Shown here piece after piece: positions 3,850-26,770 of a DNA stretch of 32,000 nt. The position numbers and the translations under genes are program-made. The DNA comes from Planctomycetales bacterium (GTDB taxonomy: Bacteria > 4484-113 > JAFGCY01), in NCBI GenBank assembly GCA_022646745.1, contig CP060262.1, positions 2,910,001-2,942,000 on the forward strand, given 5' to 3'. Every line of letters starts with the position of its first letter. Positions within the stretch are counted from its first letter, which is position 1. The notes below the pieces were generated by a model. That model was not told the DNA's origin. It did not search any database and was given only the letters and a program-made list of their open reading frames with translations.

Positions 3850-3892
3850 GCGAATTGCCTGTCCTTTTTATGGACACGACTGCAGATTGCAG

Positions 3893-3927
3893 GACCGGGC
3901 TGCCCACGGGTGGCCCGGTTTTTTTTC
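3893..3927 (+). terminator. rho-independent terminator of mdh
   Basis: Stem CCGGGC (3895-3900) / GCCCGG (3913-3918), 12-nt loop, followed by T8 (3919-3926). Confidence 0.75.
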
Positions 3928-3928
3928 A

Positions 3929-4050
3929 AGCAATGAGTAATGAAGAGTGAGCAATGATTGTTTCATGGCCGGGAGTTCACTTCGATATCTCATTGGCTCA
4001 TTGCTCATCACTCATTCTTCATTGCTCATTGCTCCCTTACTGATTACTCT
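3929..4050. repeat. long imperfect inverted repeat built from 7-nt periodic units (NAATGAG x4 on the left arm, GCTCATT-like x6-7 on the right arm)
   Basis: Left arm is caatgag|taatgaa|gagtgag|caatgat. Right arm has tcat recurring at spacings 8,7,7,7,7 (ctcattg gctcatt gctcatc actcatt cttcatt gctcatt). The reverse complement of the right arm matches agcaatgag[t/c]aatgaaga[g/a]tgag of the left arm. Confidence 0.6.
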
Positions 4051-4375
4051 AATTCGCACCGCCTGTTTAAACCGCCGATATTGTTTGACCGATGCTTGAC
4101 GCCTGCTTCACTGCATTCGGAGTTTAGACCCCCTCGGCACGGGTATCCTGATGTTGTCAGCGCAGCAGGTTCTGGCAAGCCCGCCCCAGGGCAGGGCCGA
4201 GCCGGTTCCTCCTGCCCTGGCCGGACGACGCACAACTGGCCGTTGCCAATGGCGACGGCAACCCGCTCCCGCAATGGGGGGAGCCCCGACGCTGTCTGTG
4301 ACACTGCGTTGTATCGGTTCGTATCTTGTCTGGGTACGTTCCAGGAATGGAAGGATGGCCCCGGTATCGCCGGGG

Positions 4376-4422
4376 CTGTCTGCTTTCTCAGGGACCAGGT
4401 AGCAGAAAGCAGGTAGCAGGTA
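4376..4422. repeat. heptamer-periodic hairpin element (CTGCTTTCT / AGAAAGCAG stem; cagNNNN x5)
   Basis: gctgtct|gctttct|cagggac|caggtag|cagaaag|caggtag|caggtat. 9-bp stem ctgctttct / agaaagcag. Contains GTCTGCTTTC (4378-4387), shared with the loci at 5720 and 26738. Confidence 0.5.
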
Positions 4423-4708
4423 TGGAGCTGCGAGCGCGCTGCCACGTGCTTGTCGCACAAAATACTGAAAACAAGGCTTGGTTGGAAGTACACACTGAAT
4501 CGGAATTCCAATGCGCGCAAATGTTGAACGAACTTCGCCCAGGCCGTCCCCGTTTTTCCGTTTCGCCTTTCTTCCTCCAGAACCTGGAGTCCTGCTGGGT
4601 TCTCCAGGATGTTGTCAGAATCACTTCTGACGGTCCCTGCCGGTCTACACCGGTTTTCCCGTTTGCCCGGTTCCACCGGGATTGTCATCGGGCAGTAGAA
4701 ACTGCCGG

Positions 4709-4738
4709 CAGTTCCCCCGCGCTTGCGGGGATGTGGCG
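4709..4738 (+). repeat. single type I-E-like CRISPR repeat look-alike (orphan, no array)
   Basis: cAGTTCCCCCGCGCTTGCGGGGATgtggcg resembles the E. coli I-E repeat GAGTTCCCCGCGCCAGCGGGGATAAACCG. Stem CCCCGC (4715-4720) / GCGGGG (4725-4730). Only one clear copy and no cas genes in the window. Confidence 0.3.
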
Positions 4739-5003
4739 CTGGACAGTTTGCCTGTCACATGGGCATGTTTCAGCCCAGTTCGTCCAGAGGCGGGCCAGTC
4801 CGCCACACTACCCTTGGGACACCGTCCCTGAATTGCGAAGTGGTATGTGGGAAAGGTGATCCACTCCGCTGGCATCGATGCAATTGCTTAAGCATTCCTA
4901 TTATCCTTATCAGGCGTAAAGTGTCAAGGAATAGCAATGTTAATTTATAGATCAGACATGCTTGAGGAGGTGAAAATGATAGAATGCCCTCTGGGGAGAA
5001 GCA

Positions 5004-5651
5004 ATGACAGTTAAGAAACTCAAGATTCTCAACATGCTTTGTGTAGCAACATTTGCGTTGCTTATTTTCAGTTTGAATATTGTTTCCTGTAAACAAGATT
5101 CTGACAATACTGGATCCGGTGCAAGAGTTAGCGAAGTTTCCACAGCAAATAGCAATTCCACAACTTCACAGTCAGAATCAGATGAACAATCAGGCAATCA
5201 GAGAATAACATTGCCAGCAAACTGGCCATACCCGAGCATCAAGCCACCTTCGGATGCAAGATTGGTATCTAATGATTATCTTAAGGACTTTGATCCGAAT
5301 AGTAATGGGTCACTGATTGACATTGTCAGTGATAGTGAAGATCCGAATGCTGCCCCATCTGAGAAAGTGCGCATCTGTGCAATATCATTTGCGTCGTCAA
5401 AGTCATTTCTGGAAATTTATGAAGAGGTGAAGCTTGCCACAAGCAGCATGGAAGTTTCCGAAATGACCTATCCCTCCGGAATGAATCCTGGTAAGGACGG
5501 ATTTGAACAGGCAATCTGGCATAGCAATGTTTCCAGAAATCAGATTCACCTTTTCACCGCTGAACAGAACTCAGTCAAGAGCACAATTCTCATGTTGTTC
5601 TTGGAAGAGAAGCCGAATAAAGCTTCGATAGAGAACTCAGACGCAGAGTAG
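5004..5651 (+). CDS. hypothetical lipoprotein encoded in a low-GC islet
   Basis: MTVKKLKILNMLCVATFALLIFSLNIVSCKQDSDN is a signal peptide plus lipobox I-V-S-C. GGAG lies 5 nt upstream of the ATG. A sampled 60-nt line (5041-5100) is ~32% GC, against ~70% in core genes. Confidence 0.65.
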   Translation: MTVKKLKILNMLCVATFALLIFSLNIVSCKQDSDNTGSGARVSEVSTANSNSTTSQSESDEQSGNQRITLPANWPYPSIKPPSDARLVSNDYLKDFDPNSNGSLIDIVSDSEDPNAAPSEKVRICAISFASSKSFLEIYEEVKLATSSMEVSEMTYPSGMNPGKDGFEQAIWHSNVSRNQIHLFTAEQNSVKSTILMLFLEEKPNKASIENSDAE

Positions 5652-5714
5652 CTAATGCTTTCGTTGTGCGACAACCACCCAGTAGCGTGGTCGCATCTTC
5701 GACGGCAAGAGGCC

Positions 5715-5747
5715 GCAGAGTCTGCTTTCAGCACTCTGCCAGCTGCC
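5715..5747. repeat. hairpin element of the GTCTGCTTTC family between convergent genes
   Basis: Stem GCAGAGT (5715-5721) / ACTCTGC (5733-5739). ctgc recurs with 7-nt periodicity (ctgcttt cagcact ctgccag ctgccaa). No T-run, so it is not a canonical intrinsic terminator. Confidence 0.45.
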
Positions 5748-8568: not shown

Positions 8569-9198
8569 ATGAGACGAGGAATAGTCAATTCGTACCGCCT
8601 TCTCTGGGTCGCCCTGATCCTGGGCTTCGGCCTGCTGATCTGGTGGTTCACGATGCGTTCTACCGGGGCGCGCAGGCTGGCGGAGGAATTTGACCCGGCA
8701 CAGATCAAGCGACTGCCCACCGAAGAGGAACAGCAGCAGGAGCCGGAACTGCCCAAGCCGGATAACTTCGCGGATGCAGCCCCGAAGGAGATCGTGGTTG
8801 ATGATGCCGACTTCGCGATCACCGGGCCGGACGGACTGACCGTGATGAAACTCTGGGTGCGCAAGGGCACGCGTGACGGCAGTGAGTTCAAGCTGGAGAA
8901 GGGGACACTCGAGCTGGAGATGAAGAACAAGAGCACGCTGCTCCTGAACGTCACCGATGGCCTGTTCGCCAGTGAGGAAGGCAGCGTGCGGGTCGAGGGC
9001 TCAATAACGGGGCAGATCTACGGCACGGACCAGTTCTTTGAGGCCCGCAGGCTGGTGTGGATGCAGGACAGCAATTCAGTCCGCACGGAGACGGTGCGCT
9101 ACATCGGACCCTTCGTGGATGTGACGGCGGACCGGATGGACTTCGACGTCGCCACGGGGGAGATCACCTTCGACGGTCCGGTCACCGCCGGGATCTGA
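8569..9198 (+). CDS. membrane-anchored OstA-fold protein, LptC-like
   Basis: Track ORF 8515-9198. The start at 8569 gives MRRGIVNSYRLLWVALILGFGLLIWWF (single TM anchor), an acidic linker and a ~140-aa beta-rich domain ending DRMDFDVATGEITFDGPVTAGI. Size and architecture fit LptC. The assignment is tentative. Confidence 0.4.
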   Translation: MRRGIVNSYRLLWVALILGFGLLIWWFTMRSTGARRLAEEFDPAQIKRLPTEEEQQQEPELPKPDNFADAAPKEIVVDDADFAITGPDGLTVMKLWVRKGTRDGSEFKLEKGTLELEMKNKSTLLLNVTDGLFASEEGSVRVEGSITGQIYGTDQFFEARRLVWMQDSNSVRTETVRYIGPFVDVTADRMDFDVATGEITFDGPVTAGI

Positions 9199-19771: not shown

Positions 19772-19908
19772 GCGGAGCTGCGGCGCAAGTCGCACAACTG
19801 AAGCGAGACAAGAGTCTGGCAACGGAGCTACGCGATTCAGAGGTGATTCAGCTGAGGCGTGAGTTGCAAACCCGAGTCCAAGCTGAAAGTTTGGCAACGG
19901 AACTGGCG
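19772..19908 (+). repeat. imperfect ~74-75-bp tandem duplication in the mreB-P1 spacer
   Basis: Copy A from 19775 (gagctgcggcgcaagtcgcaca...agtctggcaacggagct). Copy B from 19849 (cagctgaggcgtgagttgcaaa...agtttggcaacggaact). By hand the two best-matching blocks are 17/22 and about 16/19 identical, with about 67% identity overall and one indel. Confidence 0.45.
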
Positions 19909-19911
19909 GCA

Positions 19912-21048
19912 ATGAGCAGGTCATTCAGGAACTTTCTGGTATTTCTAGGGCTGGCAGCACTGGCTCTGGTACTCTGGCTTTACATCAGGGATTACCGAGG
20001 CAGGGTCGTAAGCAATGGCAATCTGACTGATTACGCAGCAGATGAATCCGGCAATCTGTATATCATTGAGAGCGGAAAGCTCTATTGGATGAAAGCTTCG
20101 CAGGCAGGCAGCATCCTCGGCGGAGGTAGGCGGGAACTTGCGATCTCAAATCCTGATCGTTTCATTTCAAGAACAGGTCCCGTCGTTTTGCTGGGCAACA
20201 GCCCAAGAAAGGTATACCTGCTAGATACAAAATACGGGGCAGGCTACAAGGAAATCGGTGAGTTTCCATCCGCAGCGATGTCAGAATCATTCTGCGCTTC
20301 AGAGTCTGATTCACCGATGGTTGCAAGACTGCAGGATTACTACGTTGGCGACGCTTCGACATACTTCAGAAAGGCAAATCTGGAGGTGATCGATTTTTCG
20401 GGGAATATCAGGCAATATGAAATATCTGAACCTTCATCATTTATGAAGAATCAGTATGCGCTGTCTGCTGATGGCCAGCACTTCGTTTTCCTGACAGAGT
20501 CTGAGTACAGGGCTGATACTTCCCGCAGCCTGAATGTACTTGATCTGGATAATAGGCAAACCCGCTCTGTAGAGATCCTTGATGACGGAGGAGATGCATT
20601 TATTACCGTCAATGAAGGCCGAATTGCCGTGACGAAAATGGCAAGGGGAGTGATGGTCTTTGACCTTGAGCTGAACTTGTTGATGGAGTCAAGACTGAAT
20701 TGTTCCTGGTTCCCACCATTCGAGGACCAGGGTGCATTTCTGGTGATTGAAAACGTCAAGGCCATTGTCGGGCTGGACATCAATGGCAATCAAGTGATGA
20801 ATGAACCACTTGCTGGGACGATTGAGGATTACATCATCTCCGGTGGATCGCTCTACATCTGCGTTCGCGGGGACGATTCACGCAGACGGTACTTCAGGGT
20901 GGATGCAGTGAACCGCAGGCTTGTGACTGTCAGCGATCTTCGGCAGGACTATGTCCGGTATCTGTACAGTGGTGCGCTGATATCCGGAGGCCGAATGTTC
21001 ATAAGTGATATCGGAGGTAAACTTCGATCAATCGCAATGAGTGAGTAA
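19912..21048 (+). CDS. P1: membrane-anchored beta-rich protein, paralogue family (unknown function)
   Basis: Track ORF 19843-21048. ATG 19912 gives MSRSFRNFLVFLGLAALALVLWLYI (TM anchor). It aligns by eye with P2 and P3 along its full length. Sampled lines are ~35-45% GC. An alternative GTG start exists at 19843. Confidence 0.65.
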   Translation: MSRSFRNFLVFLGLAALALVLWLYIRDYRGRVVSNGNLTDYAADESGNLYIIESGKLYWMKASQAGSILGGGRRELAISNPDRFISRTGPVVLLGNSPRKVYLLDTKYGAGYKEIGEFPSAAMSESFCASESDSPMVARLQDYYVGDASTYFRKANLEVIDFSGNIRQYEISEPSSFMKNQYALSADGQHFVFLTESEYRADTSRSLNVLDLDNRQTRSVEILDDGGDAFITVNEGRIAVTKMARGVMVFDLELNLLMESRLNCSWFPPFEDQGAFLVIENVKAIVGLDINGNQVMNEPLAGTIEDYIISGGSLYICVRGDDSRRRYFRVDAVNRRLVTVSDLRQDYVRYLYSGALISGGRMFISDIGGKLRSIAMSE

Positions 21049-21094
21049 TTCCAGTTATCTGCATGTTTGTGCTACTCTCCTGTTGGGACAGACC

Positions 21095-22268
21095 ATGAAA
21101 GCACGGATCCTTGCTGCAACCGGGATAACCGTTCTACTGGCCGTAGCGGTACTTCTGTGGCGGATTGACAATCCACCTCAACCTGATTTCGATCCCTATG
21201 CCGTTTGGGATTTTTCATTCAATGACCGGGGCAGCCTGGCTGTTGTCAGCGGAACCGATCGCTGGCTGTACCTTGCCCGGGAAAAGGAAATCAACCTGCC
21301 TCTCCTGCCGAATATTCATCCTCTCGGCATGCGCGATGTGAAACTGATTGGCAATGGTGAGGACATCTACTTCATCCGCCTGGACCATCCTGAGCTTTAC
21401 GTGATAGATGAAGAATCCAAACTCGGTTACAGGCAGCTGTACCGCAATGATGGAGCATTCATCCAGACTGACAGGATCTTCGGTTTCAACACAGTTATCC
21501 GCTTCAGTTCTGACGACAGGCAACTGCCCATGCTGATAAGCAGCCCCATTTACGAGGATGGTGTTCCGGCCGCCAAGCGCGTGCGGGTGATTGACAGCAA
21601 AGGGCAGCTCAGTGTTGATGAGATCCTGCCGGACATGTTTGCCTGCGATGAAGTGCTCGCTGACCTGCAGGCCGGGGCGGCTGTTCTGGCTGGCCCCGGA
21701 CTATTCCGGCAAGGATGCCCTGCACAGCCTGCGCGCTCTGGACCTCGGCACCCGGAAGACTTATGAATTCAAAGATCAACGTGTCAACGCCATGTCCCGG
21801 CTGGGCCTGCTCAGTGGCAGGCTGGTCTGCAATTCAGGTTCAAAGGGTCTGCTGTCACTGGACTACGACCTGAACCTGAAATGGCACAGGGAGCTGGACC
21901 TGCAACTTGGCAAACCGAAACTGATGCAGAAGTGGATCGGATGTATTGACAAGTCAGGCAGATTTCATAAGCTGACGCGTGATGGAGAGAAGGTGCTCCT
22001 GCAGTACCCCATAGCTCAGTTACAGCAAGTGCTTGAAGATGATTACAGCGGGTTTTTACTTGAAAAAACCACAGACAGTAAAGGCCAGACAGTGCTGCAG
22101 CTGGAACGAATCGGCAATGACAACACAATTGTAATTGGCTACCCGATGCAGCTTGCACCGATGTTCGACTGGTATGTCGAGCCAGTCATCCACGATGGCG
22201 TGCTGTACTACATCCAGAGTTCGCGCAGCATCAATGGCATGCACCTTGATGTGGACATGGGATGCTGA
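21095..22268 (+). pseudogene. P2: paralogue of P1/P3 split by a +1 frame change near 21671-21680
   Basis: Track ORFs 21041-21766 and 21591-22268 overlap in frames offset by +1. Joined near the G-run (21674-21677) they give a ~390-aa protein collinear with P3 (..DEVLADLQ | GRLFWLAPDYSGKDALHSLRALDLGTRKTYEF..). TM anchor MKARILAATGITVLLAVAVLLW starts at ATG 21095. Confidence 0.6.
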
Positions 22269-22867: not shown

Positions 22868-22944
22868 CGCCAGTCTCGCTGCAATACAGCTGATCCGCTG
22901 CTTCAGTGCTATGCTCAAGCCGGATACTTCCACGGGGACCTGAA

Positions 22945-24096
22945 ATGGCTGGAGTTCGCCGCGCGTATTTTGCCTGCTGCCTGGCTGGCCTGCTTGCCAT
23001 GCCGCTTATGCTTGGCTGCCAGCAGGCCACGGCTGCTGATCCCAACAAGCTGCCGCTGGCTGATTCATACCAATTCGCAATTGCCGCGGATGGTTGCCTT
23101 GCCATTGTGGCTGGCGAGGAGGGTCGCCTGCATACCGGAACCATCGGAGATGGGTCTCTGGACAGCCTTGCCATACAGGACTCAGGCCATAAGGCGCAGG
23201 AATTGATTGCCTCCAGCCAGCGCATCTACTTCCTGGATAAGGACTCAGAAGACCTGTACATGGTGGACCTGCGCGAAGCCAGCGGCGTCCGCCTGTTCCA
23301 CGACTGCGACTGGGACCAGCGCGAATGCCGCTACTTCCTGTCCGCCGATGATCGGGAGCTGCTATGTGCCGCGATTGGCGAGTTCGACATGGCAACCGGC
23401 TACCGCAGCTCACGGGTCAGGCTGGTGGTACTCGATGAAGAGGGGAAGATTGAGATGGACCATCTGTACCCGGTTGCCAATACTGCCTCGTTTGAGGTTG
23501 ACACGGGCCGCGCTGAGGTCGCATACGTTTCCACCTCATTCACGGATGAGGCGGACATTCCCCGTGTCCGGCTGCACGACTATGCCAACGACAGGGAGTA
23601 CGAATACCAGTCGGAGGATGTGTTCCACATAACATTCCTGCGTTTCGCCGGGGAGGACCTGCTCTGCAATTCAGTCACCAAGGGCATCATGGTGTTTGGT
23701 CCGGAGCTGGAACTGAAGTGGCAGGCGATGTATGAGACGGACTGGGGCCGGCCGGTGGCCATCAATGGCCAGGTGATCAGCTTCGGTGAGGACAAGAAAG
23801 TGCATGCCTTTGACATGCAGGGCAATGAGCTGTACACCGCCGGCTACGAGGACACCATCGGCATTGACCGGTTCACCAAGCGTGGCAACAGGCTCTTCAT
23901 GGAGTCCAGCTGGATGGAACCGCGCTACTGCGTACTTGATACTGACAGGCGAGAGACGAGATACTACAAGCTGCCGGTGAGCATTGACCGCGAGTACCAG
24001 TCACTGGAATGGAAGGGATCGTTCTGCCAGTTCGTCGACGAATGGTGTTACTACATCGATGGCGACAGAAAGCTGATCCGCATTGCGCTGCCCTGA
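22945..24096 (+). CDS. P3: lipoprotein paralogue of P1/P2 (beta-rich, unknown function)
   Basis: Track ORF 22906-24096. ATG 22945 gives MAGVRRAYFACCLAGLLAMPLMLGCQQ (lipobox L-M-L-G-C). Blocks shared with P1/P2 include DLLCNSVTKGIMVFGPELELKW. Confidence 0.7.
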   Translation: MAGVRRAYFACCLAGLLAMPLMLGCQQATAADPNKLPLADSYQFAIAADGCLAIVAGEEGRLHTGTIGDGSLDSLAIQDSGHKAQELIASSQRIYFLDKDSEDLYMVDLREASGVRLFHDCDWDQRECRYFLSADDRELLCAAIGEFDMATGYRSSRVRLVVLDEEGKIEMDHLYPVANTASFEVDTGRAEVAYVSTSFTDEADIPRVRLHDYANDREYEYQSEDVFHITFLRFAGEDLLCNSVTKGIMVFGPELELKWQAMYETDWGRPVAINGQVISFGEDKKVHAFDMQGNELYTAGYEDTIGIDRFTKRGNRLFMESSWMEPRYCVLDTDRRETRYYKLPVSIDREYQSLEWKGSFCQFVDEWCYYIDGDRKLIRIALP

Positions 24097-24115
24097 CCCG
24101 CAGAGTTAATCACCT

Positions 24116-24583
24116 CTACCGCCTACTGCTGTTGAAGAACTGGTAACTCTCCCAGCGCTTTTCCAGCTCGGCGATGCACTGCACCTCATGGCTGGGAATG
24201 AGCGATTTCGCTTGTTTGTGAAGTCCGGCGAAATCAAGCTCCTGTACCGAGTAGAAAACGAATTCGTTCATCTGGAAATTGGTGATTGTCATGACGTATA
24301 GGCATGGAATGTTGCCTTCGACATATTCAACCAGACGGTCCTCTATATCAGTGAACTGCTGCCATTCCTCCTCCTCCGGGATCTGGTCATCACGGGGATT
24401 GTTGTAGGGAATCGCGAAAGCCAGCTTGATTGGCAGTTCAGGATGGCGGACCCAGCCCTTAGCCAGCTGCCGGCTGCGGATGAAGACCGGCTGCCCATCA
24501 AACTGCCCCTGGATCACGCTGTAGTAATCCCCCGCACTTTCCCGCTCTTCCAGCGGTGGATGCTTCTTTGCAAATGGCCACAT
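24116..24583 (-). CDS. DUF695-like protein
   Basis: Track ORF 24116-24745. ATG at 24583 (MWPFAKKHPP...) lies 6 nt downstream of a perfect TATAAT (complement of 24590-24595). The pattern FDGQPVFIRSR...PIKLAFAIPYNNPRDDQIPEEEEWQQFTDIEDRLVEYV...MTITNFQMNEFVFY resembles DUF695. Confidence 0.5.
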   Translation of the reverse strand: MWPFAKKHPPLEERESAGDYYSVIQGQFDGQPVFIRSRQLAKGWVRHPELPIKLAFAIPYNNPRDDQIPEEEEWQQFTDIEDRLVEYVEGNIPCLYVMTITNFQMNEFVFYSVQELDFAGLHKQAKSLIPSHEVQCIAELEKRWESYQFFNSSRR

Positions 24584-24589
24584 GGATTG

Positions 24590-24595
24590 ATTATA
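24590..24595 (-). promoter_or_regulatory. -10 hexamer TATAAT, 6 nt upstream of ATG 24583 (possible leaderless transcript)
   Basis: The reverse strand reads cccTATAATcaatccATGtggcca. Confidence 0.4.
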
Positions 24596-24799
24596 GGGAG
24601 TTACCTGCTCAGGGAAACTTCCTGTGCCAAACGTAGTCATACTCCTGCGGTATAACTGAAGCAACAGGCAGCCGTATCGTCCATGGGACGGAGCGACGAT
24701 GTAAGTCGCCGAACTTGCCAGACTGACATCTGGCCTCTGCCCCATTCGTCAACCCCGGTCCCGCAGGGTGCCGGTGCGTCTTTACCGTGATCGAAGGAA

Positions 24800-26687: not shown

Positions 26688-26770
26688 GAGCAGAAAGCTG
26701 ATAGCAGTAAGCAGACTAAATAGATTGCAAGGGAGTGGTCTGCTTTCCGCTCTCTGCTTTCTGCTTTCTC
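26688..26770. repeat. heptamer-periodic inverted repeat (GCAGNAA x4 / CTGCTTT x4)
   Basis: Left arm gcagaaa|gctgata|gcagtaa|gcagact. Right arm ctgcttt|ccgctct|ctgcttt|ctgcttt. The arms are imperfectly complementary. Contains GTCTGCTTTC at 26738-26747. Confidence 0.55.

Follow-up and report, generated by a model that had tools for sequence, protein, structure and literature searches.

Paired arrays of heptanucleotides form intergenic hairpins at sites of strain difference in an uncultured UBP7 bacterium

Tandem repeats of seven nucleotides have been described in several groups of bacteria. The short tandemly repeated repetitive (STRR) sequences of cyanobacteria are heptanucleotides (Mazel et al., 1990), and TAACTGA repeats are found in Beggiatoaceae, where they sit just upstream of start codons and where the BOGUAY genome has one indirect repeat only (MacGregor, 2015; PMC4679880). 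Xanthomonas campestris has 186 arrays of the heptamer GGGAATC, 89% of them intergenic and 70 cases arranged as convergent pairs, at a mean distance of 28 nt from the upstream open reading frame (ORF); their length varies between species, and no function was found (Rehm et al., 2015; PMC4692102). Heptamer simple-sequence repeats are reported to be over-represented in many bacteria, and slippage has been proposed as the explanation (Mrazek, 2007). Here we describe heptamer hairpins of an activated-sludge bacterium (UBP7 / "Planctomycetales", uncultured) in a stretch of 32,000 nt (positions 2,910,001 to 2,942,000 of contig CP060262.1, assembly GCA_022646745.1) that we call the window.

Our results showed that the window carries three imperfect palindromes, whose arms are built of degenerate 7-nt units in short tandem runs. 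This description is well supported, as is the assignment of the units: AATGAGN / GCTCATT at locus 1, and AGCAGAA / TTCTGCT at locus 4 and at a split element whose two arms are loci 2 and 3. In all three elements the purine-rich array comes first and the pyrimidine-rich array second. The original prediction, made from the sequence alone, had proposed four sites of one architecture; opposed heptamer hairpins were recovered at loci 1 and 4 and at loci 2 and 3 joined, and the count became three because loci 2 and 3 are the arms of a single element; taken singly they fold like shuffled sequence. We place the elements in the class of intergenic heptanucleotide simple-sequence repeats, together with the STRR of cyanobacteria and the convergently paired GGGAATC arrays of Xanthomonas. 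The assignment is well supported and follows from the period of 7 in all arms, the intergenic position and the convergent pairing into hairpins. Taken as a whole, the best explanation combines this class with an origin by slippage, a role at the 3' ends of transcripts and a behavior as structural hot spots, and we hold it with moderate confidence.

The period of 7 was seen in several ways. Tandem Repeats Finder gave period-7 arrays at 3989-4034 (6.4 copies of CTCATTG), 4396-4422 (3.9 copies of CAGGTAG), and 26739-26769 (4.4 copies of TCTGCTT). Among 29 inverted repeats in the window, the two longest are locus 1 (29 nt, 86%; 3929-3957/4005-4033) and locus 4 (28 nt, 86%; 26689-26716/26738-26765). 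Self-similarity at a lag of 7 picked out loci 1, 2, and 4 and no other sites in 43.7 kb of this genome, and at the same threshold lags of 4, 5, 8, 10, 11, and 13 gave zero segments; the lag of best self-similarity was 7 in five of five arms. With about 52 kb of the species covered, arrays numbered 5 per 43.7 kb of this genome and 5 in 8 kb of L060, a further contig of the species. The 10-mer GTCTGCTTTC is present at 4378, 5720, and 26738, as originally predicted, and it is over-represented: 0.07 copies are expected in the 32-kb window, and three or more were reached in 0 of 100 shuffles. A search of the whole window with Rfam 15 at the gathering score gave 0 matches, and an E-value search of 3850-5010 gave nothing relevant, locus 1 receiving only chance matches to miRNA precursors (E > 0.5).

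Locus 1 lies behind mdh, a gene that starts at 2923. Its parts, and the terminator before it, are as follows.

3891-3927, plus strand: canonical intrinsic terminator of mdh, a GC-rich stem and T8 (-24.8 kcal/mol, z -4.3), given as context and outside the repeat
3929-3957, no strand: purine-rich arm of locus 1, four heptads, AGCAATG AGTAATG AAGAGTG AGCAATG A (best lag 7, 0.68), kept in the sister species L145
3958-3988, no strand: loop of locus 1, different in the sister species
3989-4052, no strand: pyrimidine-rich arm of locus 1, about 6.4 heptads of GCTCATT type (3989-4034) followed by degenerate CTTACTG/ATTACTC units

The element lies 80 nt past the mdh stop, directly behind the terminator. 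The predicted fold has an energy of -50.1 kcal/mol and a z-score, relative to dinucleotide shuffles as at locus 4 below, of -6.7 (-5.8 on the minus strand). The tcat spacing of 8, 7, 7, 7, 7 first noted at this locus was correctly read. In L145, whose mdh is 95% identical, locus 1 is kept in its place and in its unit type; its loop there bears no relation to that of the window, the arms differ in unit number and register, and four units of CTGAC type stand where the window has two, with the position of the element unchanged. The mdh terminator of L145 occupies the equivalent place with another sequence. Between the species, then, the arms of locus 1 are better conserved than the neighboring terminator and the loop, and the element is an empty hairpin, without cargo, in both.

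The DNA that follows drew our attention for a separate reason. About 340 nt of non-coding sequence at 4052-4392 (plus strand) are conserved between strain haplotypes and in a sister species; the lengths of the indels do not fit a multiple of three, and a terminator hairpin closes the region. In an alignment of three sequences, nine predicted pairs are altered on both sides, and Rfam gave no match; the region may encode an undescribed small RNA. The ORFs that some pipelines call across it (4044-4688 on the minus strand, 4326-4859 on the plus strand) are probably spurious.

Locus 4 is the other element that is intact in the window.

26689-26716, no strand: purine-rich arm of locus 4, AGCAGAA AGCTGAT AGCAGTA AGCAGAC
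26717-26737, no strand: loop of locus 4, 21 nt, from the inverted-repeat analysis
26738-26770, no strand: pyrimidine-rich arm of locus 4, GTCTGCT TTCCGCT CTCTGCT TTCTGCT TTCTC, ending 15 nt before the start of an EamA gene (26786)

It begins about 9-10 nt past the stop of a gene for a 259-aa nucleotidyltransferase-like protein and folds with -38.0/-39.7 kcal/mol (z -2.8/-4.6) on the plus/minus strand. Folding better than shuffled controls, which had been anticipated for all four sites, was thus observed at loci 1 and 4; loci 2 and 3 folded singly gave z-scores of -0.65 to -1.5, no better than shuffles.

The reason for this last result is found in other strains. Contigs of the species can be divided into haplotype A, the window type, and haplotype B (L008, L017, and L157), whose DNA differs by about 3-5%. 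Haplotype B has loci 2 and 3 joined in an intact form that reads GCTGTCTGCTTTCTCAGGG-AGCAGTAAGCTGAAAGCAGAGAGCAGAC-ttggatattggtttgcaga-GTCTGCTTTCAGCTCTCTGC, a hairpin of the locus 4 type with a z-score of about -3. Loci 2 and 3 are therefore the two arms of one element, and the window holds three elements.

4359-4390, plus strand: GC hairpin GGCCCCGG-tatcg-CCGGGGC followed by TGTCTGCTTTCTC, the latter including the first copy of the 10-mer (4378)
4389-4424, no strand: locus 2, the purine-rich arm of the split element, in CAGGTAG/CAGAAAG heptads; intact form at L008 12820-12890 and in L017
4420-5714, no strand: strain-specific insert of 1295 bp within the loop of the split element; homology to L008 ends at 4419 and is found again from 5715
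5720-5747, no strand: locus 3, the pyrimidine-rich arm of the split element, GTCTGCT TTCAGCA CTCTGCC AGCTGCC

No separate heptamer array is present at locus 3, which ends 2 nt from the stop (5750) of a minus-strand F420-ligase-like gene. The purine-rich arm in the window has drifted to CAGGTAG units, with 9 differences in 31 nt from L008 against the background of 3-5%. The insert has its own imperfect terminal inverted repeat of 35 nt (4426-4460 / 5664-5698) and a low-GC ORF (5004-5651) for 215 aa with a lipoprotein-like N-terminus, which had no family match in Pfam or NCBIfam. As this ORF is always met in an identical context, we rejected the idea that it is a mobile gene. A sister species is without locus 2/3 and has an unrelated 12-bp palindrome in its place; there the counterpart of 4359-4390 is a canonical terminator (a stem and GTTTTTTATCC), with whose T-tract the first 10-mer aligns.

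The comparison of haplotypes A and B, which spans 27.7 kb, showed that three of the four structural differences between them map to the three elements: an IS481-like insertion sequence (IS) in an arm of locus 1, the 1.3-kb insert in the loop of locus 2/3, and a GxxExxY cassette that replaces locus 4. The elements thus mark sites of insertion or replacement between strains. The fourth difference, unrelated to heptamers, is in the spacer before an M24 peptidase gene (window 24699-24739, 41 nt, versus L157 1718-1841, 124 nt).

The IS481-like element was found in haplotype B and three other contigs (four contigs in all), within the pyrimidine-rich arm of locus 1 at the site GGCTC (3995-3999), which is duplicated. 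It occupies L008 11079-12424 and encodes an rve transposase of 386 aa. Because of this insertion, metagenome contigs often end 110-290 nt past mdh. The inverted repeat of locus 1 is not itself an IS end, since the IS in L008 has ends of its own (GTACAGGTTCA.../...TGAACCGTAC) and sits inside the pyrimidine-rich arm.

Locus 4 is restricted to haplotype A, and its sequence is the same in seven contigs of that type. In haplotype B and two sister species its site is occupied by a minus-strand GxxExxY/PDDEXK_3 gene with its own flanking inverted repeat. The two states replace each other over 100 versus 588 nt, the 3' end of the upstream gene included, and no target-site duplication was seen at this replacement. 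Genes of the GxxExxY type (TIGR04256/PDDEXK_3) are bracketed more generally by an inverted repeat of 8-9-nt period, TTCACC(A/G)C(A/G)GAG...CTC(C/T)G(T/C)GGTGAA, which was present at 54 of 71 metagenomic loci, with the purine arm first in 42 of the 54, and in 22% of controls with mismatched flanks. Examples are L062 10784-11288, L063 10800-11345, L157 3790-4335, L158 1045-1590, and L065-L144. With its flanking repeats the gene looks like a widespread small gene cassette, of which no description turned up in the searchable literature.

A comparison with L062, a sister species, showed additional genes in the window, of lower GC (0.49-0.53) and without Pfam matches between MreB and RibD_C (19843-22268), and further extra genes between RibD_C and the M24 peptidase (22906-24745; a 383-aa ORF and DUF695). 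The RibD_C-M24 spacer of L062 contains solo heptamer arrays instead (8713-8786). Hypermutability of the kind seen at contingency loci can be set aside, since the arms are identical across at least seven window-type strains.

Of the known systems, the GGGAATC repeats of X. campestris and X. axonopodis are the closest match, and the window elements resemble them in many respects. Both consist of 7-nt tandem units, typically about four per array; both are intergenic (~90% in Xanthomonas), close to the end of the upstream ORF, and under-represented between divergent genes. The distances from stop codons in the window are 9 nt at locus 4, 2 nt at locus 3, and 80 nt at locus 1. That the sites lie just downstream of stops, as was first proposed, is accordingly right for locus 4 and for locus 3 (the latter with respect to a minus-strand gene) and does not apply to locus 2 or to locus 1, which is 80 nt away behind a terminator. 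Convergent, purine-first pairs able to form a stem-loop are frequent in both systems (here 11 pairs versus 1, see below), and in both the position is kept between related species while length and sequence vary, as shown by locus 1 against L145 and by the locus 2 arm against L008. The unit sequence differs, the window arrays are without G-tracts and hence without quadruplex potential, the host is a UBP7/Planctomycetota-like metagenome-assembled genome, and several units coexist (GCTCATT, TCTGCTT, CTGCCTA, CCACTGA). With STRR and TAACTGA the elements share tandem heptanucleotides between genes, several unit families per genome, and a patchy distribution among phyla; those are mostly direct arrays, whereas the window arrays are paired into hairpins at 3' ends.

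Arrays of the AGCAGAA/TTCTGCT type, often as opposed pairs, came up, in the scan of one genome per species that is given below, in Chloroflexota, Elusimicrobiota, Acidobacteriota, Gemmatimonadaceae (many per 8 kb), Pirellulales, Thermoguttaceae, Dehalococcoidia, and cyanobacteria; a literature search on such arrays gave nothing relevant. Across these loci there were 62 segments at lag 7 and 0-4 at each of the lags 4, 5, 8, 10, 11, and 13 (non-multiples of 3). Adjacent opposed arrays were purine-then-pyrimidine in 11 cases and the reverse in 1, an exception that arose only because locus 1 was spuriously paired with locus 2. For most pairs the distance between a stop codon and the start of the pair is no more than about 10 nt, and they often lie between convergent genes. 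This lineage also has CTGCCTA, CCACTGA, and CCTACAA units, and solo arrays without a partner arm were found at L062 8713-8786 and in L060.

Two of these regions have further features. In Gemmatimonadaceae (L032 100-3760; L025 3290-4860; L022 1960-2305; L059; L050) the numerous arrays have a conserved inner end, GTTCACTGCT/AGCAGTGAAC, and adjoin 'CGCGGGGATGAC' hairpins and G-rich/C-rich heptamer blocks; they appear to be a high-copy composite repeat. An intergenic region of 430 nt in the present species (L060 4403-4829) is dense in short-period pyrimidine repeats, among them a TCTGCTT-type array, TTCTCA/TTCTGC units with a period of 6 nt over about 100 nt, heptamers of GACCACT, and a direct repeat of about 60 nt that is present twice.

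How such elements might arise and act can be outlined. Arrays would gain and lose units by slippage, in keeping with the different unit numbers and registers between species, and pairing within a strand probably keeps the sequences of the two arms alike. Transcription from either side would give a long hairpin, purine-rich in its 5' arm and U/C-rich in its 3' arm, which would act as a 3'-end structure independent of orientation. It would stop read-through, 3' exonucleases, or both, and the pyrimidine heptads would take the part of a U-tract. Such a role is suggested by the polarity rule, by the closeness to stop codons, and by the first 10-mer, which aligns with a terminator T-tract of the sister species. 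The unrelated 12-bp palindrome that this species has in place of locus 2/3 also counts in its favor. Only with the order purine-then-pyrimidine does the U-rich arm come 3' in both directions of transcription, and this order supports a 3'-end role. Bidirectional intrinsic terminators are a known parallel: on both strands they have an A- or purine-rich 5' side and a U- or pyrimidine-rich 3' side, and they are placed after stops and between convergent genes. They differ in that the window elements are without an uninterrupted U-tract and have a long, A-U rich, imperfect stem, and the lineage also uses canonical terminators. A 3'-end role had been suggested from the start; stop-codon closeness here and in other phyla and the consistent polarity of the arms make it plausible, and the terminator that already precedes locus 1 speaks against it there. 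We therefore propose it only tentatively, as the most likely function of the hairpins.

Several observations weigh against this interpretation and against the explanation as a whole. Since mdh is already ended by a canonical terminator ahead of locus 1, the element is not needed to end that transcript. No run of at least five T was found in or after any element, and a scan for terminators lists none of them, so that they are without the combination of GC-rich stem and U run of canonical intrinsic terminators; the absence of T-tracts had been correctly predicted for the elements themselves, the canonical terminator at 3891-3927 (T8) just before locus 1 having been overlooked. The strand that folds better is the plus strand at locus 1 and the minus strand at locus 4, which is not consistently sense, and this inconsistency between loci led us to discard strand asymmetry of folding as a sign of selection at the RNA level. 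Compensatory base changes were absent between locus 1 and its L145 counterpart, where the sole pair changed on both sides falls in the non-conserved loop. The hairpin of locus 4 is missing from haplotype B and two sister species and is thus dispensable there. The best-studied relatives, those of Xanthomonas and Nostoc, are without a demonstrated function, and the species sequence compared amounts to about 52 kb.

Several of these points would also fit the strongest of the rival explanations, namely that the elements are neutral by-products: 7-nt units prone to slippage, inverted into pairs by template switching, and tolerated at gene ends without any function. The general excess of heptamers for which slippage has been proposed, the failure to find a function in Xanthomonas or Nostoc, the absence of locus 4 from haplotype B and sister species, the lack of covariation in locus 1, and the occurrence of solo arrays (L062 8713-8786 and L060) are what would be expected of such sequences. 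Neither slippage nor template switching alone predicts the 11:1 purine-first polarity, however, nor the position of the pairs, about 10 nt or less from stop codons. The arms of locus 1 are also better conserved between species than the terminator and loop beside them, and arrays identical in at least seven window-type strains are not highly unstable. We consider a purely neutral origin rather unlikely, although it is the alternative to be taken most seriously.

It could also be thought that the hairpins are a mobile family like repetitive extragenic palindromes (REPs), REP doublets forming hairpins (REPINs), or miniature inverted-repeat transposable elements (MITEs), non-autonomous and copied by a RAYT/IS200-like or other transposase encoded elsewhere. 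The presence/absence polymorphism of locus 4 within one species, the palindromic structure and extragenic location, and the deviant unit AGCTGA common to locus 4 and intact locus 2/3 would agree with this, and the Gemmatimonadaceae arrays of this type do belong to a longer many-copy repeat. With the REPs and bacterial interspersed mosaic elements (BIMEs) of enterobacteria and the REPINs of Pseudomonas the elements share the form of extragenic imperfect palindromes at gene ends. REPs reportedly stabilize upstream mRNA and are said to be preferred targets of IS, and locus 1 contains an IS in other strains. Those families differ in having no 7-nt periodicity, hundreds of near-identical copies, and a link to RAYT.

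We scanned one genome per species in 185,579 species with the 18-nt core GTCTGCTTTCNGCNCTCTGC; the representative genome of the present species (UBP7 HKST-UBA01) had it at two sites only, intact locus 2/3 and the solo array in L060, far from the tens to hundreds of near-identical palindromes by which REP, BIME, and REPIN families are recognized. The combination of terminal inverted repeats, target-site duplication, and precise empty/filled borders by which MITEs are recognized was not seen either: locus 4 replaces haplotype B sequence and is not inserted into it, and no target-site duplication accompanies it. The arms of locus 4 are 86% identical to intact locus 2/3, 86% to Dehalococcoidia arrays, and 82% to Pirellulales arrays, and the loops of locus 4 and intact locus 2/3 are no more alike than shuffles. 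With loops unrelated and arm identity at the level found between phyla, the shared 10-mer GTCTGCTTTC reflects the shared heptamer TCTGCTT and not transposed copies, and we rejected the idea that locus 4 is a transposed copy of intact locus 2/3. In the gene tables, which cover 44 kb around the window, neither a RAYT nor any other transposase is annotated. The REP-like mobile family of the original prediction is thus improbable. Its view of the sites as one family holds for the unit type shared by loci 2-4 and fails for locus 1, which has a different unit, and for the identity, which is no higher than to other phyla; its remark that they are unlike REP/BIME or ordinary MITEs was fair.

Scarcely as probable as the mobile family is the proposal that the hairpins are remnants or alternative states of gene-cassette boundaries, with arms that flank small cargo genes and an empty hairpin where cargo was lost or never gained. 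The GxxExxY gene at the locus 4 site of haplotype B and two sister species stands between purine- and pyrimidine-rich short-period repeats, such repeats flank GxxExxY genes far more often than the mismatched controls, as given above, and the loop of locus 2+3 holds 1.3 kb of cargo. The two repeat types have in common that they are intergenic, with purine-rich and then pyrimidine-rich arms, and that they occupy the same site in different strains. The GxxExxY arms, however, have a period of 8-9 and never 7, an outer TTCACC, and the motif CAC(A/G)GAG (together TTCACC(A/G)C(A/G)GAG), and they enclose a PDDEXK_3 gene; in contrast, the loops of loci 1 and 4 have no gene inside. The difference in period rules out that the two are one family. 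The arms of locus 4 have no sequence homology to those of haplotype B, locus 1 is empty in two species, and the inner 35-nt repeat (4426/5698) suggests that the insert of locus 2/3 carries its own ends.

The weakest alternative, arrays of binding sites for a DNA-binding protein or a DNA-uptake signal, is very improbable. In its favor, the operators of the pSM19035 omega repressor are direct and inverted 7-bp heptads laid out in a similar manner, the DNA uptake sequences of Neisseria often stand at gene ends as inverted pairs, the window has more copies of the 10-mer than expected, and TCTGCTT was observed 17 times in 52 kb against 7.7 expected. Against it, the sites are at 3' ends and not at promoters, the degenerate units are not the same from locus to locus, the AGCAGAA/TTCTGCT unit occurs in many unrelated phyla, the TCTGCTT excess is contributed by the arrays themselves, and the 10-mer, at about 1 per 13 kb, is far below the density of uptake sequences, which rules out the uptake idea.

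The preferred explanation, heptanucleotide repeats that arise by slippage, may act at 3' ends, and behave as structural hot spots, has consequences beyond this window. An excess of intergenic heptanucleotides in bacteria has been on record since 1990 (STRR) and 2007 (genome surveys) without an accepted function, and the present case adds an example from a barely studied candidate phylum. It provides direct within-species evidence that heptamer hairpins coincide with events of insertion and replacement. For annotation, metagenome assemblies are interrupted at such sites, and false ORF calls arise there, of which 4326-4859 is an example. The purine-first polarity and the closeness to stop codons across unrelated phyla point to a role at transcript ends. 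A broader proposal, which we regard as doubtful, is that purine-then-pyrimidine heptad hairpins are elements used convergently across phyla, with the AGCAGAA/TTCTGCT unit in UBP7, Gemmatimonadota, Planctomycetota, Acidobacteriota, Chloroflexota, and Elusimicrobiota; that they would serve as orientation-independent 3'-end elements in which pyrimidine heptads replace the U-tract; and that mobile DNA and small gene cassettes (IS481-like elements, GxxExxY genes, orphan ORFs) would also preferentially insert or be exchanged in their loops and arms. If this were true, the long-unexplained heptamer repeats of bacteria would gain a function.

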